This document shows positions 1 through 56,594 of a DNA stretch of 64,000 nt, in pieces. The notes beneath the pieces were generated by a model. The model was not told where the DNA came from, ran no database searches, and saw only the letters and a list, made by a program, of their open reading frames with translations. A program made the translations under genes and the position numbers. Source of the stretch: Candidatus Roizmanbacteria bacterium RIFCSPHIGHO2_02_FULL_40_13b (GTDB lineage Bacteria > Patescibacteriota > Microgenomatia > UBA1406 > HO2-37-13b). The stretch's first letter is position 1, and each line of letters starts with the position of its first letter. The DNA is taken from positions 11,557 to 75,556 of the forward strand of contig MFZQ01000014.1 of NCBI GenBank assembly GCA_001789445.1. Reading direction: 5' to 3'.

Positions 1-38
1 GGTTTGGGGAGGGTACGATTTTTTATTATCTCAAGGAA

Positions 39-857
39 ATGAGGAAAAATTGGCTAAAGGGAAAGCAAAAATTTCAGCCGCGCTTATTGGGTTTTTTATT
101 CTTATTTTTGCCCTATTTATTGTCCGCATCATTGGTTATATCTTCAAACTCGGTAATGGAATCTTCTAACGCCCCGCTCGTATTATCCTTAGGTGGAAGT
201 TTAGTCTCTACAAAAGAGGGAATTGATACCGCATTTTTGAAAGAATTTAACCAGATGGTGCGAAAATTCGTAAAAGGTGGAAGAAAATTTTTCATTGTTG
301 TTGGTGGTGGCCGGTTATGTCGAGATTATCGAGATGCTGGACAAGAAACTATTGGTGAAGTCACCGATATTGATCTTGACTGGCTTGGAGTTCATGCAAC
401 ACGCGTGAATGCACATCTCATTCGAACAATTTTTAAAGATATCGCCCACCCACGGATCATCGAAAATTATGAAAAAAAACTAAAACCACATGCTGAACCT
501 GTTGTGATTGCCGCCGGTTGGAAACCGGGCTGGTCAACCGATTATGATGCAGTACTTTTGAGCAAAGACTATGGAGCAACTATAATTATTAATATGTCGG
601 ACATTGATTACGTATACGATAAAGATCCAAAAATGCATGCGGATGCAACAATAATAGAAAAAATGTCATGGAACGAATTCGAAAAACTTGTTGGTACAAA
701 ATGGAGCCCTGGGGCCAATGTTCCGTTTGATCCAGTTGCCTGTGCACTTGCCAAAAAGCTTGGATCAACTGTTATAATCACCAATGGACGCAATTTGAGC
801 AATTTAGAAAATATCATTAACGGAAAAAAATTTATTGGCACCGTTATAACGTCGTAA
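39..857 (+). CDS. pyrH: Archaeal-type UMP kinase (amino-acid kinase family); likely true start at 156 (MESSNAPLVLSLGGS)
   Basis: Motifs LSLGGS, IVVGGGRLCRDY, GVHATRVNA, AAGWKPGWSTDYDA, IDYVYDKDP and FDPVACALAKKLGSTVII align with archaeal PyrH. The first ~39 codons are hydrophobic and outside the homology. Confidence 0.75.
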   Translation: MRKNWLKGKQKFQPRLLGFLFLFLPYLLSASLVISSNSVMESSNAPLVLSLGGSLVSTKEGIDTAFLKEFNQMVRKFVKGGRKFFIVVGGGRLCRDYRDAGQETIGEVTDIDLDWLGVHATRVNAHLIRTIFKDIAHPRIIENYEKKLKPHAEPVVIAAGWKPGWSTDYDAVLLSKDYGATIIINMSDIDYVYDKDPKMHADATIIEKMSWNEFEKLVGTKWSPGANVPFDPVACALAKKLGSTVIITNGRNLSNLENIINGKKFIGTVITS

Positions 858-863
858 ATTTTC

Positions 864-1925
864 ATGATTCTTTCCAAAATCACGCTTTCAAACTTTCGTA
901 ATTTTGATACAAAAAAGGTTGTGTTACATCCGAGCACGACCATTATTACCGGGCCCAATTCTATTGGAAAAACAAATCTCTTGGAAGCTATGTATGTACT
1001 CATTACTGGAGCTGGAATTCGAGACGAAAAACAAGATGAGCTTATTAAAATTGGAGAGAAAACTGCGACTATTGAAGGAAAACTCGAACATAACAACGAT
1101 ATAGATACACTGCGAATCTATCTTGAAAATGGTATTACCGCAAAAAAAGTTTTTAGTATTAATAAAACACAAAAACGCCTGTTTGAATATACGAAACAAG
1201 TGATGCCAACTGTTTTTTTTACTCCAAAACTCGTCCATGTTATTGATGGTGAGCCTGCAAGTCGGCGAAAGTTTATTGATCGAATTCTCTCAAAGCTCGA
1301 TATTGAGTATAAAAAACGGTTGGGAAATTATGAAACTGCACTTCGAAAAAGAAATAAGATTTTAGAAAAAGTGTATGACATCGCAAAATTAAAAGATGAA
1401 CTTCCCTTTTGGGATACTTATTTAATTGAACAAGCGGCATATATCTGTGAAAAGCGAGCATGGTTTGTGGACCAGTTGAACTCTGGAGTTGCTATGCAAA
1501 ATCACCTTTTCTCGATAATCTATACTGAAAAGGAGATTTCAAAAAAAACACTCCAAGATACATTTGATAAACAGTATCAAATAAAATCAACACGTGTTGG
1601 TCCACAACGTGATTCATATGAGATTTTTCAGAAAAATTTACTTCGCCCCGACACAGAGGCAAAAAATGTTCATCAATTTGGTAGCCGCTCCGAGCAACGT
1701 CTGGCCCTTTTTTGGATTATCGTAAATGAGCTCAAACTCTATGAAGAAATCTTCAAAACAGCTCCCCTCCTGTTGCTCGATGACATCTTCTCCGAGCTCG
1801 ATGAAGCAAATAGGGAATATGTGGTTGATTTAATAGGAAAGTACCAAACGGTGATTACAAAAACGGATGAGGAAGTCATCAAACTCGGCAAACTCCCGCA
1901 CTCGACCATTGAAATGGTAAAATAG
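864..1925 (+). CDS. recF: DNA replication and repair protein RecF
   Basis: N-terminal Walker A (GPNSIGKTNLLEA), ABC signature (SRSEQRLALF) and Walker B (LLLLDDIFSELD). Length 353 aa. Confidence 0.9.
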   Translation: MILSKITLSNFRNFDTKKVVLHPSTTIITGPNSIGKTNLLEAMYVLITGAGIRDEKQDELIKIGEKTATIEGKLEHNNDIDTLRIYLENGITAKKVFSINKTQKRLFEYTKQVMPTVFFTPKLVHVIDGEPASRRKFIDRILSKLDIEYKKRLGNYETALRKRNKILEKVYDIAKLKDELPFWDTYLIEQAAYICEKRAWFVDQLNSGVAMQNHLFSIIYTEKEISKKTLQDTFDKQYQIKSTRVGPQRDSYEIFQKNLLRPDTEAKNVHQFGSRSEQRLALFWIIVNELKLYEEIFKTAPLLLLDDIFSELDEANREYVVDLIGKYQTVITKTDEEVIKLGKLPHSTIEMVK

Positions 1926-1931
1926 AGGTCT

Positions 1932-2018
1932 GGAGGGTTGGCCGAGCGGTTTAAGGCGCAGGTTTCGAAAACCTGTGAGCGAAAGCTCTCAGAGGTTCAA
2001 ATCCTCTACCCTCCGCCA
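1932..2018 (+). tRNA. tRNA-Ser (anticodon CGA), CCA encoded
   Basis: Cloverleaf with acceptor GGAGGGT/ACCCTCC, anticodon stem CAGGT/ACCTG, loop TTCGAAA (anticodon CGA), long variable arm GAGC..GCTC, and T-arm AGAGG-TTCAAAT-CCTCT. Confidence 0.85.
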
Positions 2019-2046
2019 AAGCCACTGAATATTGTATCCTTAAAGA

Positions 2047-4524
2047 ATGGGGAATGAAAAAGGACTTTCGGGGGAAGAAGCTTCCGCACTACTAAAATCT
2101 CACGGTTTTAATGAGATTGCTGTAAAACCGCGCCAAACTCCACTGCAGATTTTTGTCTCGCAGTTTAAAAGTATTCTCGCCGTGCTTCTTATTCTCGCCT
2201 CCCTCGCATCACTTTTCTTAGGCGACCTTGTTGACGGAGTATTAATCTTACTCATTATCGCAATTAATGGAATCTTGGGATTTATCCAAGAGTATAAAGC
2301 CGAACAAGCAATTGCGGCACTTGGAAAAATGACTGTTTCGAGTGCCCGGGTTGTGCGAGATGGAATTGAGCAAAAGATTGAGAGTAGAGAGTTGGTGCCT
2401 GGTGACATCATTATTTTAGAACAAGGTGATAAGATCCCGGCAGATTGTACGCTTGTTCACAGCACACACTTTGAAGTTAATGAAGCATCTCTTACTGGAG
2501 AGTCCCTCAGCGTTGAAAAAAACCATGAAAAAGAGAGTACAAATAAGATTTTTCTTGGAACGATTGTTGCCAAAGGAAGAGGACGCGCGTTCGTCACTAC
2601 AACCGGCATGCAGACTCGCTTTGGACAAATAGCTAAAAAACTTTCGAAAATTGAAGATACTGCAACTCCACTTGAGAAAAAAATAAATACACTGGCTAAA
2701 CAACTCGGATTCCTCGCGCTTATGGGTGCTATCACCGTTTTTATAGTTGGATACCTCTATAATCATCCACTCGTTCAAATGGTCTTTACAAGTATTAGCT
2801 TAGCCGTCGCGGCTGTTCCGGAAGGATTACCGACTGTCATTACCATAACACTTGCTGTAGGCATGCAGAGAATGGCACGAAAAAAAGCAATTATGCGAAG
2901 ACTTTCATCTATCGAAGCACTTGGTTCTATAACAGTCATTGCGACAGATAAAACGGGCACACTCACCCAAAATCAAATGCGTGTATCTAAAGTTTGGCTT
3001 AATGATTCTTCAGATAAGACAGAAAGGCTACTTCTTGAAGCAGGTGTTTTGTGTAATAATGCAAGTCTTGTAAAAAATAATGATAAAAAACTTGACTTTT
3101 TAGGTGATACTACTGAAGGATCACTCTTGTTGTACGCTGCAAGCAATGATGTGGATGTTGAAAAACTTCGAAAAAGCGGAAAACTCATTGAAGAATTCGC
3201 ATTTGATCCGGCGCTTAAGCTCATGAGCGTTTTGTGGGAAAAAAATGGTGAGAAATATGTGTATACAAAAGGATCGTATGAGTCTATTTTAACAGTATCT
3301 AAGAACGTCGATACAGAAGAAATTGAAAAAATTCATACGGAATTTGCAAGTGATGGACTTCGAGTTATCGCAGTTGCGTATAAAAAAGTTCATTCTATTC
3401 CTAAAAATAGAAAAGAGGCAGAAGATGGTCTTGTGTTTCTAGGGCTTGTGGGTATTGCTGATCCCCCCCGGGACGAGGTTACAGGCGCGATCAAGATCGC
3501 CCGACTAGCTGGAATACGAACAATTATGATAACGGGTGATAACGAACTTACTGCCAGAGCTATTGCATCAAAAATTGGTTTGCTAGAAAATGGTGATGAG
3601 ATTATCACCGGAAAACAGCTTAAAGCTTTAACCGATAGTGAGCTTCTCAATAAACTTGATTTAATAAGAATTTTTGCTCGAACAACTCCTGAACAGAAAC
3701 TTCGTCTGGTGACGCTCCTTCAAAAACAAGGACATATTGTCGCTGTCACTGGTGATGGGGTGAATGATGCACTTGCGCTAAAGCAGGCTGATGTTGGTGT
3801 TTCAATGGGAATAACAGGTACTGATGTTGCTAAAGAAGCTTCAGATATGATTTTGACCGATGACAATTATGCAACACTCGTTACTGCCATTTCCGAAGGA
3901 AGAACGATCTACACAAACATAAAAGCATCGGTTAAGTATTTGGTCGGAAGCAATACAGGTGAGGTAATTACGGTCGTTACTGGAATTTTTCTTGGACTTC
4001 CCCTGATCTTTTCACCAATACATCTTTTATATATAAATCTTGTCTCAGATGGACTCCCTGCTATTTCCCTTGCAATGATGCCAAAACATGCAGGAATCAT
4101 GAAAGGTTCGGTTGTAAGATCCAAATCAATGTTTGACCGGTACGATAAAATTTGGTTTTTTGAAGTGAACTTCATAACAGTTATTATCACAATTCTCTCA
4201 TTTATTATTGGGCTTGCAACAGGTTCTATAGAGACTGCTCGAACAATGGCATTCTCCATATTCGTCTTTGCCCAAAGTTTTATTCTTCTCGATGTATGGC
4301 ATCTCAATAGATCGATTTTGGGTGGAACAATGTTCAAAAGCTTTATTTTTCTATTAGCATTTTTGACTCCTTTTATATTACAGTTACTGCTTATCTACAA
4401 CTCAACACTCATCACGCTATTCAAGCTAAGTCCACTTTCCATTACCCAGTTACTGTATGTTATTTCACTTTCATCAATACTCCTTTTTGTTGCAGAAGTT
4501 CGAAAAGTATTGATAAATCGATAA
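2047..4524 (+). CDS. Cation-transporting P-type ATPase, P2A (Ca2+/SERCA-PMR-like)
   Basis: DKTGTLT phosphorylation motif, PEGLP in TM4, TGDN and GDGVNDA motifs, about 10 TM segments, and an N-terminus (GLSGEEASALLKSHGFNEI) typical of Ca-ATPases. Confidence 0.85.
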   Translation: MGNEKGLSGEEASALLKSHGFNEIAVKPRQTPLQIFVSQFKSILAVLLILASLASLFLGDLVDGVLILLIIAINGILGFIQEYKAEQAIAALGKMTVSSARVVRDGIEQKIESRELVPGDIIILEQGDKIPADCTLVHSTHFEVNEASLTGESLSVEKNHEKESTNKIFLGTIVAKGRGRAFVTTTGMQTRFGQIAKKLSKIEDTATPLEKKINTLAKQLGFLALMGAITVFIVGYLYNHPLVQMVFTSISLAVAAVPEGLPTVITITLAVGMQRMARKKAIMRRLSSIEALGSITVIATDKTGTLTQNQMRVSKVWLNDSSDKTERLLLEAGVLCNNASLVKNNDKKLDFLGDTTEGSLLLYAASNDVDVEKLRKSGKLIEEFAFDPALKLMSVLWEKNGEKYVYTKGSYESILTVSKNVDTEEIEKIHTEFASDGLRVIAVAYKKVHSIPKNRKEAEDGLVFLGLVGIADPPRDEVTGAIKIARLAGIRTIMITGDNELTARAIASKIGLLENGDEIITGKQLKALTDSELLNKLDLIRIFARTTPEQKLRLVTLLQKQGHIVAVTGDGVNDALALKQADVGVSMGITGTDVAKEASDMILTDDNYATLVTAISEGRTIYTNIKASVKYLVGSNTGEVITVVTGIFLGLPLIFSPIHLLYINLVSDGLPAISLAMMPKHAGIMKGSVVRSKSMFDRYDKIWFFEVNFITVIITILSFIIGLATGSIETARTMAFSIFVFAQSFILLDVWHLNRSILGGTMFKSFIFLLAFLTPFILQLLLIYNSTLITLFKLSPLSITQLLYVISLSSILLFVAEVRKVLINR

Positions 4525-4534
4525 TCCTATAGTA

Positions 4535-4563
4535 TTGACAAATGTCCCTCTTTGAGGTATAAT
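4535..4563 (+). promoter_or_regulatory. Perfect sigma70 consensus promoter TTGACA-17 nt-TATAAT
   Basis: TTGACA at 4535-4540 and TATAAT at 4558-4563 with a 17 nt spacer, read directly from the sequence. Confidence 0.4.
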
Positions 4564-4577
4564 TGACAAGTTCCAAT

Positions 4578-4601
4578 AGCCACATTAGCTGTGGTTTTTT
4601 T
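4578..4601 (+). terminator. Rho-independent terminator-like hairpin plus T7 run, probably terminating the P-type ATPase gene
   Basis: agCCACAttagcTGTGGttttttt: a 5-7 bp stem followed by seven T residues, about 55 nt after the ATPase stop. Confidence 0.5.
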
Positions 4602-4789
4602 GGACATTTTCGCACCTTAACAAAACGGATAGTACAAAAGTGAGCTCAACTCACGAATTTTGAGTACAGTATCGAATACAGTGATATTGTGCCTAGAATC
4701 CGTGAGTTGTAGTTCAAACAAACGGCCTGCTTCATCAGAAGCTTGACCCTCTCATCATCACTGGTCCCCACAGAAATGATGAACCGAAC

Positions 4790-5599
4790 ATGTTTTACAA
4801 CCGAAGAAGCACGAGTCGAAGAAGCACCATTCAGGCACCGCGAGCACCGATGGTACCGCTCGCACTACTACTCTTGCTCGTTTTGATCATCCTAGGCAAT
4901 GCCTGGTGGTCACCGACGACGGAGGCCCTTTCGGCACAACCGACAGCAGTTGTAGACGCTCCTGTCCAGATTTCGACAGTGAGAGGACTTGCAACCGCCA
5001 CACCGGAACCACCGATTCACATCGCGTGGTTATCACACACGCTCGACCCGTTCCTCTGGAAACTCGCCAACGCCTGCAATAGGTGGGGCGTGGATCCAAG
5101 ACTGTGTGCCATTGTTGCACTTGTGGAGTCCGGGGGAAACCCGTACGCCGTGAGTGAAAGTGGCGCATATGGGCTGATGCAGATCATGCCAGCAACGGGC
5201 TCGCTCGTCGCTACAAGTCTCGATACCCCAGTGGATATCTACGTCATCGACGACAACGTCAATGCCGGAGCGTTCCTTCTTGGAGACGAGCTTGGCTACT
5301 TTGGATTCCTGCAGAGTGCAGATCCAACCTGGCGATGGAGCGTCATGCGTGCAGCAGCTGCCTTCAACGGTAGCCGCAAGTATGCAGACGAGCTGATCGA
5401 CTACGAGACGCTCAAGGTAGGTGGCAATTGCGCCCTCTACTATCCAGAGATCTTTGACCAGCAAATGCATCGGTATTCCTGCTGGGTAGGCGGCCTCTGG
5501 GACGACATCGACGAGAAGGAAAGCGACACGCTTAACTACTGGCTTGCCAGTGGAGGTCAACGACTGATCGACGATGCCGTAGCCGCAGCACAGCGGTAA
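4790..5599 (+). CDS. Membrane-anchored lytic transglycosylase (SLT domain) on a GC-rich island
   Basis: SLT catalytic motif [25 protein letters not shown], an N-terminal hydrophobic anchor, and local GC near 58% against roughly 35% in the flanks. Confidence 0.7.
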
Positions 5600-5731
5600 A
5601 GCACAAGGGCCAGGAGGCACACAGACGGATGTCAGCGTGATCCTTCCTTCCCCCTTTTTGCCCCAAGCGTTCTCGCGCCCTCGAGACTGTACTATCCGTT
5701 TTCCAACCCTTTTGCTATAATATTTTTATAC

Positions 5732-6223
5732 ATGAATACTTCTCAAATAAAAATCTTTATCACTGGTGGAACAATTGATGACTTGAATTATGAGAGAGAC
5801 GTCCCTCAAAATCATCAATCCCTCATTACCGGCTTATTAGAGCGAGCGAGAATTACTCCCGATTATGATGTTGAAGTACTCATGCAGAAAGATAGTCGAG
5901 TTATTTCTGATAAAGATAGAGAAATTATTTTAGAAAGATGCAGGAATTGTACTGAGGATGAAATACTTATTACTCATGGCACATACACAATGCCTGGAAC
6001 TGCAAAATATTTAGGCAACACTCATCTTGATAAAACGATTGTTCTTTTTGGAGCACATATTCCTGCAAACAGAGATAATTCGGACGCTCTTTTTAACCTA
6101 GGAACTGCCTTCATTGCCTGTCAATTACTACCAAAAGGTGTCTATATTCTTATGAATGGAAAAGTATTCACATGGGATAACGTCAAAAAGGATTTTCCAA
6201 CCGGGTACTTTAAAGAAGAATAA
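5732..6223 (+). CDS. Asparaginase/glutaminase-family N-terminal domain protein (short, 163 aa)
   Basis: IFITGGTIDD motif (asparaginase TGGTIA threonine box) and a size that covers only the N-domain. Confidence 0.5.
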   Translation: MNTSQIKIFITGGTIDDLNYERDVPQNHQSLITGLLERARITPDYDVEVLMQKDSRVISDKDREIILERCRNCTEDEILITHGTYTMPGTAKYLGNTHLDKTIVLFGAHIPANRDNSDALFNLGTAFIACQLLPKGVYILMNGKVFTWDNVKKDFPTGYFKEE

Positions 6224-6267
6224 TCAAAGAATTTTCTACCTCTTTTTCATGGTATACTTCACCATAC

Positions 6268-8046
6268 TTGCATAGAAAATCGCGTATGAGTACACTCACA
6301 CACTCCATTGAAGAAATAAAAAATAAGCTTGATATCGTTGATTTCATTGGTGGCTATACGACACTGAAAAAGATGGGACGAAATTATAAAGCCAACTGCC
6401 CGTTTCATACCGAAAAAACTCCCTCATTTGTAGTTTCCCCAGACCGGCAAATTTGGCACTGTTTTGGCGCATGTCAAGATGGGGGAGATGTGATTAAGTT
6501 TTACATGAAGTGGGAAAATGTGACTTTTTTTGAAGCGCTCAAAGAGCTTGCTGTTCGAACTGGCGTAAAGCTTGAAACGAGTGAGGTCGAGGATCATACG
6601 TGGCAAAAAAAGGCACGAATGTTTGAAATAAATGCACTTGCGGCAAAATATTACAATTACCTTCTTGTAAACCATAAAGTCGCAAAAGTTGCCCGCGAGA
6701 TTCTTGAGAAAAGAAACATTTCAGACAAACTCATCAACACGTTTCAACTTGGATATGCTCCCAATTCGTGGGATTCGCTCATAAAGTTTTTGACGAAAAA
6801 AAAGTATTCGCTTCCTGACCTTGAATCGGTCGGACTTGTTATTAAAGGAGATAAAGGAAGTTATTACGATCGATTTCGAAATCGAATTGTTTTTCCACTC
6901 AAAGATAGTCGCGGAAATATTTTAGGATTTTCGGGCCGAGCTATTGAAACTGATGATGGCGGGGCAAAATACATTAATACTCCTGAAACAGAAATTTATC
7001 ATAAACGAGAAACGCTTTTTGGGATTGATATTAGCAAAGAAAGTATTCGTCGTTCAGAGAGTGTTATTTTAGTTGAGGGAGAATTTGACATGATCGCCTG
7101 TTTTCGAGAAGGGGTGGAGAATGCAGTTGCAATAAAAGGCTCTGCAGTGACCAGAGATCAACTTTTAGTAATAAGTCGATTGTGTAAACATATAATTCTT
7201 GCACTTGATGCCGACTTTTCTGGAAGTGAGACAATTAAAAGAGCTATTAAAGATGCACAGATTCTCGATTTCAAGATTGAAGTTGCAGTTCCAAAAAATG
7301 GAAAAGATCCCGATGAAGCATTTTCAATTAATAAGGTTGAGTATAAAAAGATACTCAAAAATCCCCAAAACATTTATGATTTCGTCATTGAAAATACCCT
7401 CGCCCAGTTTCCCAAAATTGATGCATATTCGAAACGTGAAATTGCAGATAAAATTATTCCCTTTGTTGTCTTTATTGAGAATCCTATTATTAAGTCACAT
7501 TACATTCGCCGACTTTCTCAAATATTGGAAGTCGATGAAAATTCTATCCAAGTCGAGCTTACAAATTTCGGAAGAAGCGAAGAGAAAAAAACAAATAAAA
7601 AATTTATTACAGAAAAACCCGTTATAAAAAAAAGAGATGAACTCATCGAACAACATGTATTAAGCAAAACTTTTACTAGTGAAGCTATTGATGAAGCGCT
7701 AGAAAAATTGAAACAAGAAATTACAGAAGATGACTTTACTTCAAATGTGTATCAGAAAATATTTCATGCATTAATTGAAAGTAAAGAGCGTTTTACTGCA
7801 CAAAGTTTTGCAAAATTGTTGCCTGCAGAGTTGCAAGAAGCATATGACCAGTTATTTTTAGGAGCCATGGAAATTCCAACTTCCGATATAGGTGATTTTG
7901 ACAGGACGCTTCTTGAAATGAAACGACTTTCTTTGAAACGAAAAATTCGTGATCTCATACAAAATGAGAAAGACGATAACTTAAAAAGGGTTCAAGAACT
8001 TTCTGATTTATTATCTTCAGTGGAAAAAAGGTTGTTTATGGTGTAA
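6268..8046 (+). CDS. dnaG: DNA primase DnaG
   Basis: CHC2 zinc finger (CPFHTEKTPSF...HCFGC), Toprim EGEFD motif, 592 aa, and location upstream of rpoD. Confidence 0.9.
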   Translation: MHRKSRMSTLTHSIEEIKNKLDIVDFIGGYTTLKKMGRNYKANCPFHTEKTPSFVVSPDRQIWHCFGACQDGGDVIKFYMKWENVTFFEALKELAVRTGVKLETSEVEDHTWQKKARMFEINALAAKYYNYLLVNHKVAKVAREILEKRNISDKLINTFQLGYAPNSWDSLIKFLTKKKYSLPDLESVGLVIKGDKGSYYDRFRNRIVFPLKDSRGNILGFSGRAIETDDGGAKYINTPETEIYHKRETLFGIDISKESIRRSESVILVEGEFDMIACFREGVENAVAIKGSAVTRDQLLVISRLCKHIILALDADFSGSETIKRAIKDAQILDFKIEVAVPKNGKDPDEAFSINKVEYKKILKNPQNIYDFVIENTLAQFPKIDAYSKREIADKIIPFVVFIENPIIKSHYIRRLSQILEVDENSIQVELTNFGRSEEKKTNKKFITEKPVIKKRDELIEQHVLSKTFTSEAIDEALEKLKQEITEDDFTSNVYQKIFHALIESKERFTAQSFAKLLPAELQEAYDQLFLGAMEIPTSDIGDFDRTLLEMKRLSLKRKIRDLIQNEKDDNLKRVQELSDLLSSVEKRLFMV

Positions 8047-9219: not shown

Positions 9220-12177
9220 ATGAACCTTACTCCCACACAAAAAAAAGCTATTTCTAACAATGAAGGTCCGCTTCTTATTATCGCTGGCGCAGGAACAGGA
9301 AAAACAACTGTACTCGTTGAGAAAATAAAATATTTAGTTTCTAAAAACCTAGCAAAACCCGAGGAAATTCTCGCACTAACTTTCACCGAGAAAGCCGCAC
9401 AAGAAATAGAGGAACGCGTAGATCTCGCACTTCCAATGGGGTATTTTCAAATGCAGATAAGCACCTTCCACGCATTTTGCGACAAGATTTTACGCAACGA
9501 GATCATAAACATCGGACTTTCTCCAGCTTACACTCTTCAAACACAAGCCCAGACGATGCTATTCTTGCGCCAAAATTTACCAATCATGAATCTCACCTAT
9601 TTTCGCCCACTTTCAAATCCAAACAAGTTTCTCTATGGACTCTTGCAACATTTTTCCAGGCTTCGGGATGAAGATGTGAGTCCGGAAGAGTATGATCGTT
9701 GGATAAAAAGAGGGCTCGAGAGCTCGTCAGCTGGAGGGCTTGAGGAAAAAGGGAAGTATAAAGAGCTTGCGAAAGCATACAGCGAGTTTCAGAATCTGAA
9801 AATAAAAAATAATGTGTTCGATTTTGCGGATCTCATTTATTACACGTTGAAGTTATTTAGAACACGAAAAAAAATACTTGAGCAATACCAAAATAAGTAT
9901 AAGTACATTCTCGTTGATGAGTTTCAGGATACTAATATTGCACAGTATGCATTGATTAAGCTTTTAGCTCCGCCTAAAAGTAATAAAAGTTTGACTGTTA
10001 TTGGAGACGACAATCAAAGTATTTATAAATTTAGAGGGGCGGCAATTTCAAACATTCTCACGTTTAAAAAAGATTATAAGAAAACAAAAACTGTTGTTCT
10101 AAATGAGAACTTCCGAAGTACACAAAAAATTCTCGATGTTGCATACAAAGTTATACAAAATAATAATCCCGACACGCTCGAATCTAAACTCGGAATTTCA
10201 AAAGAATTAAAAAGTCAACAAGGTGAAGGAGCAACAGATGATATTGAATTAAAACTCAACATGAATGTAGTTCATGAAGCAGACGCTGTAATTTCCAACA
10301 TTGAAAAACGAAAAAAAGAAAATCCAAAACTTACCTTCAATGATTTTGCAATTCTCACTCGAGCAAATGCGCACATCGATCCATTTATTAAAGCGCTTTC
10401 CGCCGCAGGAATCCCATATCAGGTAAACAATCAAGGACTATTATTCAAACAACCAGAGATTAAAGATCTTATTTCATTCCTCTATATATTAAATGATGTG
10501 AATGATTCGACTGCTTTTTTTCGAGTTATTTCCATGGATATTTTTGATATTGATTCCACCGATATTGCCAAACTTGTTTCGTTTGCTCGAAAAGTTGGCG
10601 TGTCGTTTTTGGAAGCAACATCAATTTATGTAAGCTCCGAGCACGAGGATTTTCGAAATGAAAATTTTGAACAATATAAACCGTACTTACCTGTTCTGAA
10701 AATCGGTACAAAAGAAAGACTGTATAAAGTGATTACGCAAATAACCGATGGGATCTCTCGAATTAGTAAAGATAGTGCCGGACAAATTCTCTATTATTTC
10801 CTCGAAAATAGTGGCCTCATGGCAAAAATCTCGGTTATTAAAACAGAAAAGGAAGAAATAATTGCAAAAAATATCTCTCGCTTTTTTAATAAACTGAAAA
10901 GTTTTGAACTTACCCAAGTTGATGCTTCTGTAAACGCGGTTGTTGAGTATTTAACATTATGCATGGAAATGGGGGAGTCGCCCATTACTGAAAATGACGA
11001 TTGGGAACAGATGGATGCGGTCAATATTCTGACTGTCCATGGTTCAAAGGGATTGGAATTTGATACTGTTTTTTTGGTAAATCTCACAAGCGGCAGATTT
11101 CCAACAATTTATAGACGTGAACAAATTCCCCTTCCTGATGGAATTATTAAAGAATTACTTCCAACTGGAGATGCACATATGCAAGAAGAACGACGACTCT
11201 TTTATGTTGGAATAACTCGGGCAAAGAATAAGCTGTTTTTGAGTGCATCATATTTTTATGGAGAAGGGAAGCGTCGTCACAAATTATCTCCCTTTATCGA
11301 TGAAGCACTTGACCCAAAGCTTATTCAAAAAGCAAAAAATGAAACACTTGAGACTTTAGAACAATTACCTCTCTTTGACTTAGCAAAAATAAAAGATGAC
11401 TTTGAAAAAAAGCCTGAAAAAAAATCAAAAGCGCTCTCAAAAACCAAAACACTTTTCTCATACTCACAAATTCAAACGTATCAGATTTGTCCACTTCGAT
11501 ATAAATATCAGTACGTTGTAAAACTACCAGTAACTGCCGGATTTGCCGCCTCATTTGGAGACTCGATGCATAAGGCTCTTCAATATTTTTATACTCTCCA
11601 CTTGAAAGATATGCATCCGACCCTCGATGATTTATACGATCTGTATTATAAGTACTGGGTTCCAGTGGGGTATGGATCTAAACAGTATGAGGAGAAAGTT
11701 AAAAATGAAGGAAAAAGGTTACTTCAAGAATTTTACGATACGTACCATTCAGAAAATATTCAGATTGCCGGACTTGAACAGTGGTTTAAGATTAAGATTA
11801 CAGATTCTATCTTTATTTCAGGGAAAATAGATCGCATTGACTTAATTGAAAATGACTCCATTGAAATTATCGATTATAAAACTGGAAAAGTACCGACCGA
11901 TGCAGAACTCAAAAAAGAAATGCAGCTCGCCCTTTATGCACTTGCGGCAACTGATAAGTCTTTGTATGCAAAAGATCTTTCTCAAATAAAATTGACATAT
12001 TATTACCTGCAAGAAAATAAGAAAATGAGTCTAACTCGAACACAAAAAGATATTGATACAGTTATTGAAACGGTTTCCCAGACTGCTCAAGCTATTCAAT
12101 CCGGAAACTTTGAGCCACGAGTTGGTCCCTGGTGCGGCTTTTGTCCGTTTAAGATCAACTGCGAGGTATGGCAGTAG
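9220..12177 (+). CDS. UvrD/PcrA-family helicase fused to a C-terminal PD-(D/E)xK nuclease with a Cas4/AddB-like Fe-S Cys cluster
   Basis: Walker A AGAGTGKT, DEFQD motif, a C-terminal nuclease motif (IDRIDL..IIDYKTGK), and Cys pattern C...CGFCPFKINC. Confidence 0.8.
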   Translation: MNLTPTQKKAISNNEGPLLIIAGAGTGKTTVLVEKIKYLVSKNLAKPEEILALTFTEKAAQEIEERVDLALPMGYFQMQISTFHAFCDKILRNEIINIGLSPAYTLQTQAQTMLFLRQNLPIMNLTYFRPLSNPNKFLYGLLQHFSRLRDEDVSPEEYDRWIKRGLESSSAGGLEEKGKYKELAKAYSEFQNLKIKNNVFDFADLIYYTLKLFRTRKKILEQYQNKYKYILVDEFQDTNIAQYALIKLLAPPKSNKSLTVIGDDNQSIYKFRGAAISNILTFKKDYKKTKTVVLNENFRSTQKILDVAYKVIQNNNPDTLESKLGISKELKSQQGEGATDDIELKLNMNVVHEADAVISNIEKRKKENPKLTFNDFAILTRANAHIDPFIKALSAAGIPYQVNNQGLLFKQPEIKDLISFLYILNDVNDSTAFFRVISMDIFDIDSTDIAKLVSFARKVGVSFLEATSIYVSSEHEDFRNENFEQYKPYLPVLKIGTKERLYKVITQITDGISRISKDSAGQILYYFLENSGLMAKISVIKTEKEEIIAKNISRFFNKLKSFELTQVDASVNAVVEYLTLCMEMGESPITENDDWEQMDAVNILTVHGSKGLEFDTVFLVNLTSGRFPTIYRREQIPLPDGIIKELLPTGDAHMQEERRLFYVGITRAKNKLFLSASYFYGEGKRRHKLSPFIDEALDPKLIQKAKNETLETLEQLPLFDLAKIKDDFEKKPEKKSKALSKTKTLFSYSQIQTYQICPLRYKYQYVVKLPVTAGFAASFGDSMHKALQYFYTLHLKDMHPTLDDLYDLYYKYWVPVGYGSKQYEEKVKNEGKRLLQEFYDTYHSENIQIAGLEQWFKIKITDSIFISGKIDRIDLIENDSIEIIDYKTGKVPTDAELKKEMQLALYALAATDKSLYAKDLSQIKLTYYYLQENKKMSLTRTQKDIDTVIETVSQTAQAIQSGNFEPRVGPWCGFCPFKINCEVWQ

Positions 12178-14763: not shown

Positions 14764-16551
14764 CTAGCCCTCCAGCTCTCTACTTTCATCTATAAACCTC
14801 GATACCTGCGCATAACTACTTCTTCCAAACGCAAACCGTCTCCCCACATACGTTATAAATAATTTTCGCATCGCACGCGTTATTCCAACGTAAAAAAGCC
14901 TGCGTTCTTCTTCAAGTTCATACAAATCATCAACTGATCGGCTATGCGGCAAGATCCCTTCTTCAAGTCCAATTATAAACACAAACGGAAACTCCAGCCC
15001 CTTTGCCTGATGAAGCGTCATCAAATGCACTCCCTTTTTGCCTTGAGCCTGTCGAAGAGTCTTCTCATTTTGAGAGTATTCCGATTCAACGAGCGCCACT
15101 TGTTCCAAAAACTCTCCAATCTTATTATGCGTTGTAGCTACGACCCGAAGTTCTTTAATATTTTCAAGCCGTGAAAAATCTTCCTCTGTTTCTCCATTAT
15201 ACAGATCACCATACTTAGTTTGTAGTAAAATCGCATCCAAAATATCCACACTGTCAGCCTCTTCTAATTTATCTTTGTAAAGCTCATATACTTTTTCAAA
15301 TTGCTCAAACCTGCGTTTCCCAATTTTTACTGCTCGATCGCTTGAAATCTCATCGTCCGGGTTCATTACAAGACGCATATACGAAAGTAAGTCTTTTATT
15401 TCTTTCCGCTCATAGAATCTCGTTCCTCCAATTAATACATACGGAATTCCCATATGTAAAAATGATTCTTCCACCGCCCGAGACTGTGCGTTGATTCGAT
15501 ATAGAACTGCAAAGTCCTGATACTTGCATTCTCCTCCTTGAACAAGATTTTCAATTTGTCCTGCAACGTAGAGGCCCTCGTATTCTTCGTTATCAAGCTT
15601 TTCTATCTCGACAAGCTCCCCTCTCCCCTTTTGTGTAAAAACTTTGAGAATTGGGTGCGTGTGATTTTGATTAATTACATTATATGCAAAATCAAGAATA
15701 TTTTGTGTTGACCGATAATTTTCTTTCAAATAAAACGTTTCACAATTTTCAAAATTTTCTTTAAACTTCTCAAGATTTCTAATCTGTGCACCACGCCATG
15801 AATAGATACTTTGGGAGAAGTCGCCAACAATTGTTACATTATTTTCTTTCTTTCCGAGTTGCCGAGTAAGTTGATACTGTGCGAAATTTGTATCTTGAAA
15901 TTCATCAACAAGGATGTACTTAAATTGTTGGTGATACTTATCAAGAATTTCTGGATGCTTATCAAAGAGCATAACGGTTTTGTAAATTAAATCATCAAAA
16001 TCAACCGCATTATTTTTCTCAAGTCGTTTTTGGTACGCACTGTATACTGGGCCAACCATTCGGCCAATAAAGTCTTTAAACATTTCAGCATATTTTTCAG
16101 GAGAAATAAGTTCATCTTTTGCTGAAGAAATTCTCCCCAAAAAAAAATTTCCCGTGTATCTTTTATCAATATCTTGATCAACTAGTACCTTTTTTATAAG
16201 ATTTTCTTGATCATCCCGGTCATAAATAACAAAATTTGACCCAATACCATCAACTGCACCGTACCTGCGGAGAACTCGTACACAAAATGAGTGAAACGTT
16301 CCAACAAATCCAATCGTGACTTCCTCTTTATATAGCCGCTCCTTCATCTCACCAGCCGCTTTATTCGTGAAGGTTATAAGAATAATCGAGGATTGTGGAA
16401 CTTTGTCGTTCTTAATTAGATTGACAACTTTTTTAATGAGAACACGCGTTTTACCCGATCCAGCCCCAGCAAGAATAAGAGATGGGCCAGATGTATGCAT
16501 TACCGCTTTTTTTTGTGCTTCATTTAGTTCGTTGAATAGCTCACACTTCAT
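14764..16551 (-). CDS. pcrA: ATP-dependent DNA helicase PcrA/UvrD/Rep
   Basis: N-terminus LNEAQKKAV...LILAGAGSGKT, DEFQDT and GDFSQSIY motifs. The ORF extends to 16731, but homology begins at MKCELFNELNEAQ (ATG at 16551). Confidence 0.85.
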   Translation of the reverse strand: MKCELFNELNEAQKKAVMHTSGPSLILAGAGSGKTRVLIKKVVNLIKNDKVPQSSIILITFTNKAAGEMKERLYKEEVTIGFVGTFHSFCVRVLRRYGAVDGIGSNFVIYDRDDQENLIKKVLVDQDIDKRYTGNFFLGRISSAKDELISPEKYAEMFKDFIGRMVGPVYSAYQKRLEKNNAVDFDDLIYKTVMLFDKHPEILDKYHQQFKYILVDEFQDTNFAQYQLTRQLGKKENNVTIVGDFSQSIYSWRGAQIRNLEKFKENFENCETFYLKENYRSTQNILDFAYNVINQNHTHPILKVFTQKGRGELVEIEKLDNEEYEGLYVAGQIENLVQGGECKYQDFAVLYRINAQSRAVEESFLHMGIPYVLIGGTRFYERKEIKDLLSYMRLVMNPDDEISSDRAVKIGKRRFEQFEKVYELYKDKLEEADSVDILDAILLQTKYGDLYNGETEEDFSRLENIKELRVVATTHNKIGEFLEQVALVESEYSQNEKTLRQAQGKKGVHLMTLHQAKGLEFPFVFIIGLEEGILPHSRSVDDLYELEEERRLFYVGITRAMRKLFITYVGRRFAFGRSSYAQVSRFIDESRELEG

Positions 16552-16567
16552 GGTATATAATCTTACC

Positions 16568-17221
16568 ATGAAATACGTCGTAGCAAACCTCAAAGCACAC
16601 AAAAGTGTCGATGAGACAATGGCCTGGTTACACGAGTTTATGGCCCAAGACCTCGAGAAGTTTTCAAATATCGTTGAAATTATTATCGCTCCCTCGTTTC
16701 TCGCACTTGAAAGCACATATAAAATCCTCAAAGATTTATCTATCAGTCTTTGCAGTCAAGATCTCTCTTCCCTTTCACCCGGCGCGTATACGGGTGAGGT
16801 TAGCGCACAAGCACTCAAATCATTTGTGAAGTATACACTTATTGGTCATAGCGAGCGCAGAAGAGTACTTAAAGAATCAGATGAGCTCCTCAACCAAAAG
16901 GTTGTTCAAGCAAATAGTGCGGGTATTATTCCAATTTACTTTATGAATGGTGAAAACACAGATGTTCCAGCGAATGTACATCACATAGTGTATGAACCAG
17001 CAGGAGCAATTGGAGTTGGAAATGAAATAAGTATCGATCATGTTATTGAGATTAGAAAGCAAGCTGATCCTGAAAATAAATATACTTTTTTTTATGGAGG
17101 ATCAGTGTCACCAGAAAATGCTGAAACATATATAAATAATGAAACGATTGATGGAGTGATTATTGGTACCGAGGCACTAGATCCTATTCGTTTTTACAAA
17201 ATACTCTGCACTATCATTTAA
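16568..17221 (+). CDS. tpiA: Triosephosphate isomerase
   Basis: VVANLKAH, IGHSERR, YEPAGAIGVG and YGGSV motifs. The ORF N-extension from 16316 is rejected because homology starts at MKYVVANLK. Confidence 0.85.
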   Translation: MKYVVANLKAHKSVDETMAWLHEFMAQDLEKFSNIVEIIIAPSFLALESTYKILKDLSISLCSQDLSSLSPGAYTGEVSAQALKSFVKYTLIGHSERRRVLKESDELLNQKVVQANSAGIIPIYFMNGENTDVPANVHHIVYEPAGAIGVGNEISIDHVIEIRKQADPENKYTFFYGGSVSPENAETYINNETIDGVIIGTEALDPIRFYKILCTII

Positions 17222-28638: not shown

Positions 28639-30744
28639 TTATTCTGATTGTTTTGGAATCATCATCAGGTTAATTCTGCCCATGCTGTCAACTTGGTCGA
28701 CTTTCACCCGTACTCTGTCTCCAATTTGAACTACATCGTGCGGATCTTTCACAAATCCGCTTCCCATTTTGGAAACATGCACCAGTCCTTCTTTTCCAGG
28801 TAAGAATTCAACAAATGCTCCGAATTGGAGTATTCGCTTCACCTCTCCCTCAAATTCTTCCCCAATCTGGACCTGTCGATAGACGTTTGCAACAAGGTCT
28901 ACGGCAATATCGACCATTTTTCGATCAACTCCAGAAATACTGACTTTTCCGTCATCCGTAATATTAATCTCGGTTTGGGTTTGAGCGATGATTCGCTTAA
29001 TATTCTTTCCTCCCGGACCGATAATTTCTCCAATTTTGTCTTCAGGTGGCGTAAGAATGACTACTTTTGGTGCAAATGGAGATACGTCTCCTCGGGGCCG
29101 ATCAATGACTTTATGCATCGCTTCAAGGATGTGAAGCCGAGCAACATTTCCCTGAGTAAAGATTTTCTCAATCATGTCCTTTGTGAGGCCGCGATTTTTA
29201 ACATCAAGTTGAATTGCTGTAATTCCTGTCTTTGTTCCAGCAATCTTGAAGTCCATTTCGCCTGCAAAATCTTCAAGTCCCACGATATCGGTGAGAACCA
29301 CGTATTCTGAGTCAGACTTGGTGACAATTCCCATGGCAACCCCCGCTACAGCTTCTTTAATTAATACTCCAGCATCCATGAGGGCGAGTGAGGAGCCACA
29401 CACCGATCCCATAGAACTTGATCCGTTCTCTGCTAAAATTTCTGAAACCACTCGCATGGCATATGGGAATTCTTCAAGAGATGGTAAAACCGGCTCTATT
29501 GCTTTTTCAGCCAAAGCTCCATGTCCAATAGCACGCCGGGACGGACTCATCATACGACCAACCGTTCCATATGAGTATGGACCGTCAGAGTAGTGATGAA
29601 TGTACCGTTTGGTTTCCGTTCCTTCCGGACCCTCGATAGTTTGTTCAAGTGTTGAGGAACCAAGCGTCACGGTTGAAAGTACTTGTGTTTGACCACGTTG
29701 GAAAAGTGCTGATCCATGTGTTCGAGGTAAAAGAGAAGTCTCCACATAAAGCTCACGTACTTCATCAACCGCTCGACCATCCGGTCGTTTCTTGTTTTCA
29801 AGAATGTCACTTTTAATAAACGCATAATTATATGTTGTGAGTGCAGCAGAGATTTCCTTCTTGTCGTACTTTTCATCCAATTTTGTGTATAAATCATCAA
29901 TGATTTCATTGAGTAACACGCTATCAGATCCGGCTGTTCGAGCAGACTGGGCAATCGCTTTTTCAATCAAATCTTTATATTCCTTCTTAATAAGCGAGAC
30001 AATTTCATCGTATGTCTCACTTTCTTTTACAACTTGCTTTTCTCTACCAATCTTCTCTCGCAAAGTCTTGATAAAGTCGACTATTTTCTTGTTTTCTTGT
30101 TTTGCCATCTCAATTCCCTCCTTGATTATATCTTCGGAAACCATTTGAGATTCAGCTTCGATCATTAGAACCTTTTCTTCTGTTGAAGACACAACAAGAT
30201 CAAGAATTGAATGTTGCTGTTCCAAATCAGTTGGATTTAAGATAAGTCCGCCATCGCCGTTTTCGGTTGATGATTTAACATATCCAACACGCATGGTGCT
30301 AATAGGACCTTCCCAAGGAACACTTGAAACATGAAGTGCGGCAGAAACTGCAATTGCTGATAGAATTTCTGGGGAATTTTCACTGTCTACTGAAAGTAGT
30401 GTGATCACAACTTGGACTTGATTTTTATAATTTTTAGGAAAAAGTGGGCGAATTGAGCGATCGATGAGTCGACCGGTAAGAACTGCCTCATCAGATGGTC
30501 GTCCTTCTCGTTTTACCCAGCGAGAACCTTTGATAATGCCTCCAGCATAGAGCTTTTCAGCATACTCTACAGAAAGGGGAAAATAATCCAAATTTGGATT
30601 TTCCTCTCCAACGGCGACAGTTACCAGAACTGCAGTGTCACCAAGTGTGGCATATACCGATGAGTCTACAGCTTGTGCTAACTTGCCAAACTGAAGCGTA
30701 AGTTTTTTATCGTCTATGACGATAGATTCTTCAATCTTGTTCAT
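28639..30744 (-). CDS. pnp: Polyribonucleotide nucleotidyltransferase (PNPase)
   Basis: Two RNase PH domains plus C-terminal KH and S1 domains, 701 aa, located downstream of rpsO. Confidence 0.95.
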   Translation of the reverse strand: MNKIEESIVIDDKKLTLQFGKLAQAVDSSVYATLGDTAVLVTVAVGEENPNLDYFPLSVEYAEKLYAGGIIKGSRWVKREGRPSDEAVLTGRLIDRSIRPLFPKNYKNQVQVVITLLSVDSENSPEILSAIAVSAALHVSSVPWEGPISTMRVGYVKSSTENGDGGLILNPTDLEQQHSILDLVVSSTEEKVLMIEAESQMVSEDIIKEGIEMAKQENKKIVDFIKTLREKIGREKQVVKESETYDEIVSLIKKEYKDLIEKAIAQSARTAGSDSVLLNEIIDDLYTKLDEKYDKKEISAALTTYNYAFIKSDILENKKRPDGRAVDEVRELYVETSLLPRTHGSALFQRGQTQVLSTVTLGSSTLEQTIEGPEGTETKRYIHHYSDGPYSYGTVGRMMSPSRRAIGHGALAEKAIEPVLPSLEEFPYAMRVVSEILAENGSSSMGSVCGSSLALMDAGVLIKEAVAGVAMGIVTKSDSEYVVLTDIVGLEDFAGEMDFKIAGTKTGITAIQLDVKNRGLTKDMIEKIFTQGNVARLHILEAMHKVIDRPRGDVSPFAPKVVILTPPEDKIGEIIGPGGKNIKRIIAQTQTEINITDDGKVSISGVDRKMVDIAVDLVANVYRQVQIGEEFEGEVKRILQFGAFVEFLPGKEGLVHVSKMGSGFVKDPHDVVQIGDRVRVKVDQVDSMGRINLMMIPKQSE

Positions 30745-35540: not shown

Positions 35541-36383
35541 ATGGCAAGTAATTATTACGAAGTTTTGGGTGTATCGAAGTCTGCAAGCGCGGCAGAAATT
35601 AAGTCGGCGTATCGAAAGCTTGCGTTGAAGTGGCACCCCGATCGTAATAAAGATGCCGGGGCGGAAGCCAAATTCAAAGAAATTAATCAGGCATACGAAG
35701 TGCTTTCAGACACAAGTAAAAAGCAGACGTATGACCAAGTAGGTCATACTAACTTTACCGATCGCGGTGGGAATAACGCATCCGGCGGTGCATACGGAAA
35801 TCCATTCACGTATACCTACACTACTTCCAGCTCTGGGAACCCATTTGAGGGAGTAGACGGATTTTCTGATCCATTTGAGATATTTGAACAATTTTTTGGA
35901 TTTGGAAATTCGCGTGGGAACAGACGACCTCATCAAGTATATCAACTTACTATTAGTTTTGATGAGGCTGTCACCGGAATTGAAAAAACGGTACAAATAG
36001 AAGGACAAACGAAAACGATAAAGATTCCGGCAGGAATAGACAGTGGAAATCGAATTCGATTTTCTGATTTTGATGTGATGATTAATGTTGCCAAAAGCGA
36101 CATTTTCAAACGAGAACGACAAGATATTTATGTAGAATTTCCGCTTTCGATAACAACTGCAGTTCTCGGAGGAGTTGTAACCGTGCCCTCGCTTGATGGG
36201 GGCGGAGTACAAATAAAGGTGAAACCGGGAACACAACCGAATTCGGCCCTGCGTCTTGCAGGAAAAGGACTACCGTACCCAAATTCAAAACGACGCGGAG
36301 ACGAGTACGTTATTTTCAAAGTCAAAATTCCTGAAAAAGTAACCGGCCGCCAGAAACAGATACTCGAGGAACTCGATGCGTAA
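35541..36383 (+). CDS. dnaJ: J-domain co-chaperone (DnaJ/CbpA-like, no zinc-finger domain)
   Basis: J domain [32 protein letters not shown], a G/F-rich region and a C-terminal substrate-binding domain. No CxxCxGxG repeats. Confidence 0.8.
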
Positions 36384-56047: not shown

Positions 56048-56059
56048 ACAATAATTTTA

Positions 56060-56590
56060 CTATGTAAAGAGCTTTTTAACCTCTTTTGCCACTGAAAAAA
56101 CAAATTCAAGATCTGCTTTTGTGTAATCTTTAATCTCTTTATGTATGCCAATATGCTGTTCGTTTCTCAATTGTCTAACTCTATCGATTTTTTTAAATAA
56201 TTCATCTTCTATGCAGTCTTTAGCTTTCAAAAAATTATTAATATTGCCCAGATTAAGTTTTTCAAATTTTATTTTTTCAGGATTTTTCATGTAATCTCCA
56301 GCTATAATTTGATGACTATCAGTAACTTCGTGTAATACTATTTTATTTGTGAAATCCCATTTGTAGATTACCAAATCTTCTTTTGTATATTTCTTCTCCA
56401 ATAGATATAAAAGCAATGCCTCAATAATTGATGCTGTGTAAATAATTACAGTTTTTCTAAAACTGCTTTTGGCTAAGTCACTATAACTCTTTGATTCTGA
56501 AAATGGAATTAGATCAAGAATATGATTAAAGGCAATATCAAGATTTTCTCTCAAAACTAAGTCGCTAACAAAGGGGAAGTTACTAGCCAT
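56060..56590 (-). CDS. Hypothetical protein inserted between hsdS and hsdR; possible HEPN-like (R-x3-6-H) motif
   Basis: 176 aa, alpha-helical, C-terminal RVRQLRNEQHIG. No confident family. Confidence 0.3.
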   Translation of the reverse strand: MASNFPFVSDLVLRENLDIAFNHILDLIPFSESKSYSDLAKSSFRKTVIIYTASIIEALLLYLLEKKYTKEDLVIYKWDFTNKIVLHEVTDSHQIIAGDYMKNPEKIKFEKLNLGNINNFLKAKDCIEDELFKKIDRVRQLRNEQHIGIHKEIKDYTKADLEFVFSVAKEVKKLFT

Positions 56591-56594
56591 AGTC

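Follow-up and report, generated by a model that had tools for sequence, protein, structure and literature searches.

How does a gene whose base composition departs sharply from that of its genome come to stand in AT-rich DNA, and what keeps it that way? The question was raised by a tract of about 1 kb in contig MFZQ01000014.1 of Candidatus Roizmanbacteria bacterium RIFCSPHIGHO2_02_FULL_40_13b, which carries the gene of a lytic transglycosylase with an SLT domain. The whole 64,000-nt stretch of that contig which was analysed (positions 11,557 to 75,556, forward strand) is called the window below, and all coordinates refer to it. It was considered probable that the locus is a conserved expression site for recombining alleles of the enzyme, whose richness in guanine and cytosine (GC) is actively maintained. 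The tract and the gene were placed as follows.

4723-5689, no strand: GC-rich tract, 56.4% GC, from change points and the composition profile.
4790-5599, plus strand: lytic transglycosylase gene, 269 amino acids (aa), Pfam SLT PF01464 at 2.9e-16.

Bases 4720-5710 contained 55.9% GC against 37.5% elsewhere in the window, a significant difference (z=5.8), and 45.6% was the ceiling for every other 991-nt segment. The abrupt contrast claimed by an earlier note on this DNA was therefore real, although its figures of 58% and 35% were slightly overstated. Maximum-likelihood change points from a three-segment likelihood fit set the edges at 4723 and 5689, and at the right edge the GC fraction fell from 0.58 to 0.24 inside 50 nt. 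The tract comprised the final ~67 nt of the 5' untranslated region (UTR), the open reading frame (ORF) and a structured 3' UTR. Codon usage was atypical at all positions. The GC fraction at third positions (GC3) was 0.61, whereas 48 other ORFs of the window averaged 0.29 +/- 0.06 and reached 0.44 at most (z=5.6). GC1 and GC2 were likewise elevated, and both C-ending and G-ending codons were enriched (C3 0.34 vs 0.135, G3 0.26 vs 0.155). The protein was rich in Ala, Pro and Trp and poor in Lys (1.9% vs 7.9%). The antisense frame of 195 aa that the earlier note had ascribed to GC-rich DNA was found at 5033-5620. It was not conserved in the sibling alleles, where the longest open antisense stretches lay within the range of synonymous shuffles; hence it was rejected as a gene and regarded as a by-product of GC-richness.

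A sharp compositional break and codon use atypical at all positions would suit a foreign gene acquired recently, or an inter-species assembly chimera, and both had been put forward by the earlier note. The chimera was refuted. ENA contig L001 was 100% identical to window 1-6786, crossing both junctions, and Logan contig L002 (run SRR2090153, an aquifer sample; PMC7414124) matched window 4546-5628 at 100% and reproduced the left junction, L001 and L002 being contigs that may share source reads with the window. Sibling genomes from other projects carried the identical type of GC-rich/AT-rich junctions.

Nor was a recent acquisition supported. The gene order ATPase, SLT, dnaG was common to the window and to the diverged siblings L003 and L174, so that the cassette occupied an equal position in all three, with its own conserved AT-rich promoter and leader. 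In L003 the island was 79% identical at the nucleotide level and was followed by dnaG (83.6% of nucleotides; 93% of DnaG residues). In L174 the order was ATPase, SLT, a sigma-factor gene on the opposite strand and dnaG, and the aa identities to the window were 81% for the ATPase, 85% for DnaG and 46% for the SLT protein. The cassette was absent only from L008, a much more distant relative (DnaG 66% identical) with other genes across the interval from tRNA-Ser to dnaG. The left neighbour was located as follows.

2047-4524, plus strand: P-type cation ATPase gene (Pfam), the conserved left flank of the cassette, 81% aa identical and at the same position in L174.

When 1.84 billion representatives were searched exhaustively with HMMER, a small clade of full-length relatives at 38-48% identity was obtained and, beyond it, thousands of generic SLT proteins, mostly of GC-rich-type amino-acid composition. 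The clade members with DNA (the window, L003, L174, L010-L013 and L295) had a gene of 54-58% GC within flanks of 37-45% GC, while the distant homologs examined lay on contigs uniformly of 63-74% GC. The closest homologs were all in AT-rich genomes with the same frame. Profile-guided scans of Joint Genome Institute (JGI) metagenome contigs and IMG/VR gave generic SLT domains only, and neither a member of the clade nor a copy in a phage. Mobility genes, such as an integrase, and direct repeats flanking the locus were looked for and not found.

The cassette unit was found in at least three gene contexts, and the flanking genes of L010-L013 had no counterpart in the window. The window itself encoded an archaeal-type UMP kinase, RecF, tRNA-Ser, DnaG, RpoD and PilO, and its nearest named genome was a Candidatus Microgenomates metagenome-assembled genome (MAG). 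The locus resembles the islands described by Lawrence and Ochman in its sharp one-gene anomaly of GC and codon usage near a tRNA gene (here tRNA-Ser, 2.7 kb upstream with the ATPase gene between). It differs from them in its conserved position in diverged relatives, the lack of mobility genes, a composition undecayed at saturated divergence and an AT-rich regulatory frame of its own. Recent acquisition or chimerism was accordingly given hardly any credence. Judged by its sequence relatives, the locus appears to be a long-resident gene slot of a lineage of ultra-small groundwater Patescibacteria (the candidate phyla radiation, CPR) and not a recent foreign insertion, and the horizontal exchange that does occur appears to concern alleles of the resident gene among related strains rather than the arrival of a foreign gene.

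The identity of the product agreed with the earlier note, which had proposed a membrane-anchored lytic transglycosylase of the SLT type. The PF01464 score was 59.5 bits against a cut-off of 21.3, profiles of MltC, Slt and EmtA from the PDB matched at about 1e-11, and the SLT motif quoted by that note corresponded to aa 113-137 of the 269. A conserved N-terminal RRSxIQ motif, placed in the cytoplasm, preceded a single hydrophobic helix at aa 21-39 (4850-4906; mean Kyte-Doolittle 2.47; helix 24-37 in the AlphaFold model), and a variable linker, disordered in the same model, extended to about aa 77. The catalytic domain covered aa 78-269 (5021-5596), with the catalytic Glu113-Ser114 at 5126-5131, and the predicted local distance difference test score (pLDDT) of AlphaFold was above 90 across aa 75-269. 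Residues E113, S114, G128, Q131, I132, M133, P134, A191 and N193 were invariant within the clade; E113, S114, Q131, M133, P134, A191 and N193 were still invariant in the wider alignment. The window allele has AAFNGS where the other alleles have AAYNGG.

The best Foldseek matches were MltE, MltC and Slt (probability 1.00, E down to 1.8e-5), with goose-type lysozyme as well, and the closest PDB families by sequence were the same as by fold (MltE/EmtA, MltC, Slt70). With these E. coli enzymes the protein shares the goose-lysozyme-like all-helical fold with Glu-Ser at a helix end, and with family-1 lytic transglycosylases generally the GLMQIMP and AYNxG motifs. However, it is only 17-22% identical to the solved family-1 structures, and unlike the named family-1 enzymes it scores under all NCBIfam equivalog cut-offs. 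Its anchor is an N-terminal membrane helix where known family-1 enzymes have a lipobox, and it differs from them further by the cytoplasmic RRSxIQ motif and by a C-terminal insert peculiar to the clade, GG[DN]CA...RYxC[WF], whose two cysteines are invariant. The ORF product is thus predicted to be a single-pass membrane-anchored family-1 lytic transglycosylase with an outward-facing catalytic domain, which would cleave peptidoglycan outside the cell. The host also encoded MurJ, FemAB, an LCP-family protein and MltG/YceG; since it has wall machinery of its own, the SLT enzyme was regarded as an extra lytic transglycosylase. In the Patescibacteria literature lytic transglycosylases were mentioned only for type IV secretion (PMC12102498), and no account was found there of a GC-rich lytic transglycosylase or of this locus.

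The public gene call P0007 (L010 342-395) begins at an internal Met, and an in-frame ATG upstream recovers the N-terminal MK..NSRRSSIQ. Call P0001, whose start corresponds to Met21 of the window ORF, is probably too short as well.

The conserved unit exceeded the GC-rich island, reaching from about 4526 to 5709, and its non-coding flanks were kept at the nucleotide level across loci whose ORFs share only 38-48% of aa. It consisted of the following elements, in which IR-L and IR-R denote the left and right arms of an inverted repeat (IR).

4526-4563, plus strand: promoter block, with a CCTATAGTATTGAC box, a -35 hexamer TTGACA (4535-4540), a 17-nt spacer and a -10 hexamer TATAAT (4558-4563).
4571-4604, plus strand: hairpin and T-run at the predicted transcript 5' end, from its terminator-like match and covariation.
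4622-4636, plus strand: IR-L, AAAACGGATAGTACA, left arm of a perfect 15-nt inverted repeat around the gene.
4647-4709, plus strand: leader hairpin, long and imperfect, whose internal loops UUUGAGUACA and UUGU are conserved.
5606-5653, plus strand: 3' UTR hairpin, its top CACACNGACGUGA(U)GUCAGNGUG having a GNRA-type loop, window copy at 5618-5639.
5688-5709, plus strand: IR-R, TGTACTATCCGTTTT (5688-5702, the reverse complement of IR-L), and a CCAACCC tail.

The promoter block begins directly after the ATPase stop codon (4522-4524), and its hexamers match the consensus at 12 of 12 positions. The CCTATAGTATTGAC box and both hexamers were conserved in L010, L012, L013 and L295, and the block would work as a sigma-70 promoter. 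The 5' hairpin, similar to an intrinsic terminator or attenuator, has a core stem at 4578-4596 followed by the T-run and an outer stem in which UUCCAA pairs with UUUUGGA. Its consensus fold over five loci held 12 pairs, 5 of them with compensatory changes, and its covariation score was 0.45 compared with 0.23 in shuffles (0/500 reached it) and at most 0.16 in slid controls. The leader hairpin, missing from L174, gave 24 pairs over four loci, 4 with compensatory changes. The top of the 3' hairpin was invariant in 7 loci, and its basal stem showed 6 compensatory pairs, with pairing in 86.6% of cells where slid controls had 43-57%; its covariation score was equalled by a slide of +1, so the support is moderate. 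This hairpin occurs once in the window.

The arms of the inverted repeat stand 1051 nt apart, are 100% complementary and are the sole two exact copies in the 64 kb. One and the same 12-mer of the repeat flanked the ORF on either side in L001, L010, L013, L174 and L295, and IR-R with its conserved CCAACCC tail forms the right end of both the conserved unit and the GC-rich tract. A permissive Rfam 15 scan of 4300-6000 gave only weak, chance-level hairpin matches and no family, and a scan of the entire window at gathering scores gave two tRNAs only. In viral contigs the 14-mer of the repeat had only chance-level matches and the 3' hairpin motif had none.

Several observations were made beside these elements. 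A 13-nt direct repeat, AGTATTGATAAAT (4506-4518) and AGTATTGACAAAT (4531-4543), 25 nt apart, duplicates the -35 region; L174 has one copy only, overlapping the 3' end of the ATPase gene. The sole contig of the viral set with two copies of the 14-mer was L188 (IMGVR_UViG_3300009619_000055), an 8.3-kb near-perfect palindrome with mirror-image ORFs, and this 'viral' contig is an assembly artefact. Identities of the repeats as integron attC or retron a1/a2 were dropped by eye, as the core motifs misfit and there is no integrase or reverse transcriptase. The idea that IR-R serves the downstream gene as a -35 or activator site in fixed position was also dropped, since its spacing to the -10 box varied over 13-25 nt.

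A perfect, conserved 15-nt inverted repeat around a gene whose promoter lies outside could be read as a pair of transposon ends, or as the sites of an invertible ON/OFF segment, and the occurrence of the unit in several gene contexts, in a region downstream of tRNA-Ser whose gene content varies among relatives, would agree with a mobile cassette or DNA switch. However, conservation continues beyond both repeats, to the promoter and 5' hairpin on the left and to CCAACCC on the right, so the repeats are not element ends. No target-site duplication was found, and neither recombinase, invertase, transposase, integrase nor reverse transcriptase was present among the 46 window ORFs scanned. The orientation of the gene relative to the promoter was equal in 8 of 8 loci, and the breakpoints of allele exchange described below fall at the limits of the ORF, inward of the repeats by 85-140 nt. 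Mobility or inversion was therefore considered very unlikely.

What is exchanged at the locus was seen in the comparison of L295 with L013. The flanks of these two loci were 93-100% identical in nucleotides. On the left this identity extended through codon 14 (MKTHKNSRRSTIQP), ~45 nt into the ORF; on the right it resumed exactly past the stop codon. Between these limits the ORF body was mostly 30-60% identical, one stretch at the catalytic motifs reaching 83%, and the catalytic parts shared 49% of aa. Alleles on such near-identical flanks were about 45-50% alike in aa. The exchanged segment thus ran from about codon 15 to the stop codon. The body of L295 was ~83% identical to that of L010, although the flanks of L010 were only about 80-90% identical, and one internal segment of L295 matched the window and L012 allele types. 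Both allele types recurred in several assemblies and co-occurred in sample SRR3989344. Near-identical flanks together with mosaic alleles point to replacement by recombination in the conserved frame. Most contigs of the locus were only 1-2.5 kb long and ended inside that frame (L002, for example, at 4546 and 5628), which was attributed to the same allele replacement.

A likeness may be drawn to porB, opa and tbpB of Neisseria and to the pneumococcal pbp genes, which also combine near-identical flanks with deeply divergent mosaic alleles and breakpoints at the borders of the variable segment. Those loci lack a large stable GC excess and a conserved structured RNA frame, and the variable protein here is, unlike theirs, a peptidoglycan hydrolase of an episymbiont lineage.

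Further, the persistence of the GC excess was considered against the divergence of the alleles. Between the window and L003 the SLT gene had a nonsynonymous divergence (dN) of 0.17 and a synonymous divergence (dS) of 0.65, giving a dN/dS ratio (omega) of 0.26, compared with dN 0.04, dS 1.39 and omega 0.03 for DnaG. Against L174 the synonymous sites were saturated (dS about 2). The catalytic parts of the eight alleles were 38-52% identical, apart from the window-L003 pair at 85%. GC3 nevertheless remained at 0.54-0.65 in all 8 alleles against 0.20-0.47 in their flanking genes. The N-terminal 59-81 residues had only 12-38% aa identity between distant alleles, with an omega between the window and L003 of 0.47 (NG86) to 0.99 (YN00), and this nearly unconstrained part was still 53-58% GC at all codon positions. 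In L003 the 3' UTR was 61% GC overall, with a lineage-specific insertion of ~50 nt that was visibly GC-rich.

It might be argued that these values are merely the residue of an ancient transfer from a very GC-rich donor, ameliorated slowly, passively and in parallel in all descendants with no maintaining force. The fraction of Gly, Ala, Arg and Pro (GARP) was 0.41 in homologs outside the clade, 0.31 in the clade and 0.21 in host proteins, which makes the clade intermediate; the contexts of distant homologs that were examined had 63-74% GC; and the SLT dS between the window and L003 is below that of dnaG, so that decay could be slower. However, synonymous sites are saturated between the window and L003 on one side and L174 on the other, and more distant alleles share only 38-52% of aa. 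From this we infer by a two-state decay model with host bias that GC3 should by now be at most about 0.45-0.48, most of any initial excess having been erased. GC1 and GC3 are those expected at equilibrium in a genome of 56% GC by the Muto-Osawa relations, the almost wholly turned-over N-terminal part equals the core in GC, and the L003 lineage has added GC-rich sequence to the 3' UTR. Passive amelioration was thus considered improbable. Since GC3 stays high despite the expected decay and the turnover of the N-terminal part, the GC-richness appears to be the equilibrium of this segment, actively maintained, and not a remnant of recent import.

The mechanism proposed for the conserved expression site is as follows. 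A fixed AT-rich frame (promoter, 5' hairpin, IR-L, leader hairpin, 3' hairpin and IR-R) would carry an exchangeable GC-rich ORF, and alleles would swap through recombination in the conserved flanks. GC would be kept by a GC-favouring process linked to recombination, namely a bias in the repair of heteroduplexes that would be greatest at sites of allelic difference and recombination. The GC-rich and the exchanged segments nearly coincide, which fits a bias of this kind, acting at all codon positions and at near-neutral sites. Recombination is also said to correlate with GC3 in bacteria. A recombination-linked process was slightly favoured as the maintaining force, albeit at somewhat less than an even chance. 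Hypervariability of the enzyme would reflect a variable partner, most plausibly the wall, or the inhibitors of wall hydrolases, of the episymbiont's host cell.

Selection on a structured mRNA was the main alternative, or a contributor, and was held to be nearly as credible. In global synonymous shuffles the ORFs of 7 alleles folded below expectation, with z of -4.2, -5.0, -3.3, -1.9, -3.0, -5.6 and -2.8, and local 30-codon shuffles of 8 alleles gave z from -1.55 to -4.9. Control host genes (n=27) averaged about -0.3, 24 of them at -0.24 (sd 1.4) and the others at -0.5, +0.25 and -3.25, and 17 GC-matched genes, GC-rich SLT homologs included, averaged -0.87 (sd 1.2). The excess folding of the alleles was significant relative to either set of controls (Mann-Whitney p = 1.4e-4 and 5.5e-5). 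Such folding excess and the RNA elements of the frame fit selection on structure.

In its full form this alternative holds that GC is kept by RNA selection, for an mRNA that is structured, nuclease-resistant or throttled and whose ends pair through IR-L and IR-R, the hypervariability being a separate property of the protein. The excess of predicted folding in all alleles, the covarying hairpin at the predicted transcript start and the conserved 3' hairpin agree with it, as does a pairing probability of about 1.0 for IR-L with IR-R in 4 loci when one transcript is taken to include the two. Among the host genes is that of PNPase, a 3' exonuclease that stable hairpins block. However, a comparison of the window with L003 showed no conservation of individual base pairs of the ORF (28-33% of changed pairs kept compared with 26-44% in dnaG), the excess was weak in three alleles and some control genes also reached z of about -3. 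The arms of the inverted repeat are invariant, and hence they offer no evidence from covariation. These folds presume an mRNA that reaches IR-R, and a short U-run follows the 3' hairpin in the window lineage and not in others. RNA selection in this form was regarded as a possible but rather unlikely explanation.

The three outlying controls near -3 against synonymous shuffles were PNPase (28639-30744), DnaJ (35541-36383) and HsdR (53735-56047). A stable hairpin at the 5' end, which in the window is a predicted end, and complementary 5' and 3' regions are also known from the ompA and aprE leaders and from icaR of S. aureus; here, unlike in those cases, the pairing would enclose a whole 1.05-kb mRNA and spare the ribosome-binding site.

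Several points weigh against the expression site with recombination-linked bias. The evidence for allele swaps comes from metagenome contigs, in which strains could have been joined via a shared leader, or two paralogous loci of one genome could be involved. Silent copies were not found when the 8 alleles were compared by tblastn with the window, L001 and L008 (~69 kb), none scoring below E=0.4 outside the locus. The 3' UTR is conserved and not variable and yet is also GC-rich, and GC skew is absent from the 8 alleles (-0.07 to 0.00), unlike in the vls locus of Borrelia. Biased gene conversion in bacteria usually shifts composition by a few percentage points, and it is not known to have been demonstrated in Patescibacteria. 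On the side of RNA structure, which is weakened by the loss of ORF pairs between the window and L003, the three alleles with little excess folding stood at z of about -1.6 to -1.7.

The vls cassettes themselves offer a precedent of comparable size for the GC excess: a gene-conversion locus of 49% GC in a genome of 28.6% GC, whose GC-richness was proposed as needed for exchange (PMC11499132). Both loci have a hypervariable, recombination-diversified coding segment with constant ends, ~20 GC points above an AT-rich genome, and associated inverted repeats (PMC11499132). They differ in that vls has a GC skew of about 0.52 (PMC11499132) while it is about 0 here, in that vls has an array of silent cassettes where none was found in the ~69 kb searched, and in that variation was seen here between strains, the within-cell variation being a vls feature. 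The product here is an enzyme whereas VlsE is a surface lipoprotein, and the inverted repeats bracket the whole gene while in vls they lie at a junction. By analogy, the locus might be a dedicated diversification locus in which a fixed expression site, recognisable by the 15-nt inverted repeat and the structured RNA elements, accepts interchangeable GC-rich cassettes, switching wall-cutting specificity on the host cell, with GC needed for exchange. This extension was considered doubtful.

Downstream of the cassette one further ORF was located.

5732-6223, plus strand: ORF of 163 aa with the N-terminal domain of an asparaginase only (Pfam PF00710), outside the cassette.

It was found in the window lineage only; at this place L003 has dnaG directly and L174 the sigma-factor gene. 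A TATAAT box at 5716-5721 lies 10 nt ahead of its ATG, and in other loci a similar -10 box past IR-R stood 7-12 nt ahead of the start codon, whatever the downstream gene. Boxes so close to start codons suggest putative leaderless transcripts.

The interval between tRNA-Ser(cga) and dnaG (window 1932-2018 to 6267) varied in gene content between relatives. In the window it held the ATPase gene, the SLT gene and the asparaginase fragment, and in L008 (6361-10000) four unrelated ORFs. In L013 a tRNA-Ser (tga) lies about 0.9 kb upstream of the cassette. L008 (CAYQYZ010000003.1) has its gene order in common with the window at 61-97% aa identity; RpoD at 97%, with RecF at 75% and DnaG at 66%, makes an unusual spread. 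Because gene order and identity are shared with the Patescibacteria-like window, the label 'uncultured Gammaproteobacteria' of L008 is probably wrong.

Elsewhere in the window, two paralogs of UvrD/PcrA-type helicases, about 34% identical, were found at 9220-12177 (plus strand) and 14764-16731 (minus strand), the longer with a C-terminal Cas4/AddB-like nuclease domain, as in an AddAB-like pair. A type I restriction-modification operon occupies 53735-60894 on the minus strand (HsdR, HsdS and HsdM, with an AAA_15/AAA_21 ATPase gene between hsdS and hsdM). The UMP kinase at 39-857 is of the archaeal and not the bacterial type (TIGR02076, above cut-off).

A sharp GC anomaly is normally taken as recent transfer, while this gene has kept an excess of ~20 GC points over its genome despite deep divergence. 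The locus offers a rare natural case in which to ask what besides ancestry determines local base composition, be it recombination-linked bias or selection at the RNA level. It breaks up metagenome assemblies and runs the risk of a false contamination flag during the curation of MAGs. The hairpins and the inverted repeat that brackets the gene are unannotated candidate regulatory elements, which are directly testable. A hypervariable, outward-facing peptidoglycan cutter under a consensus promoter is a strong candidate determinant of host interaction or host range in these uncultivated episymbionts and, if the diversification locus were true, the episymbionts of the Patescibacteria would have their first described system of an antigenic-variation-like or host-range-switching kind.

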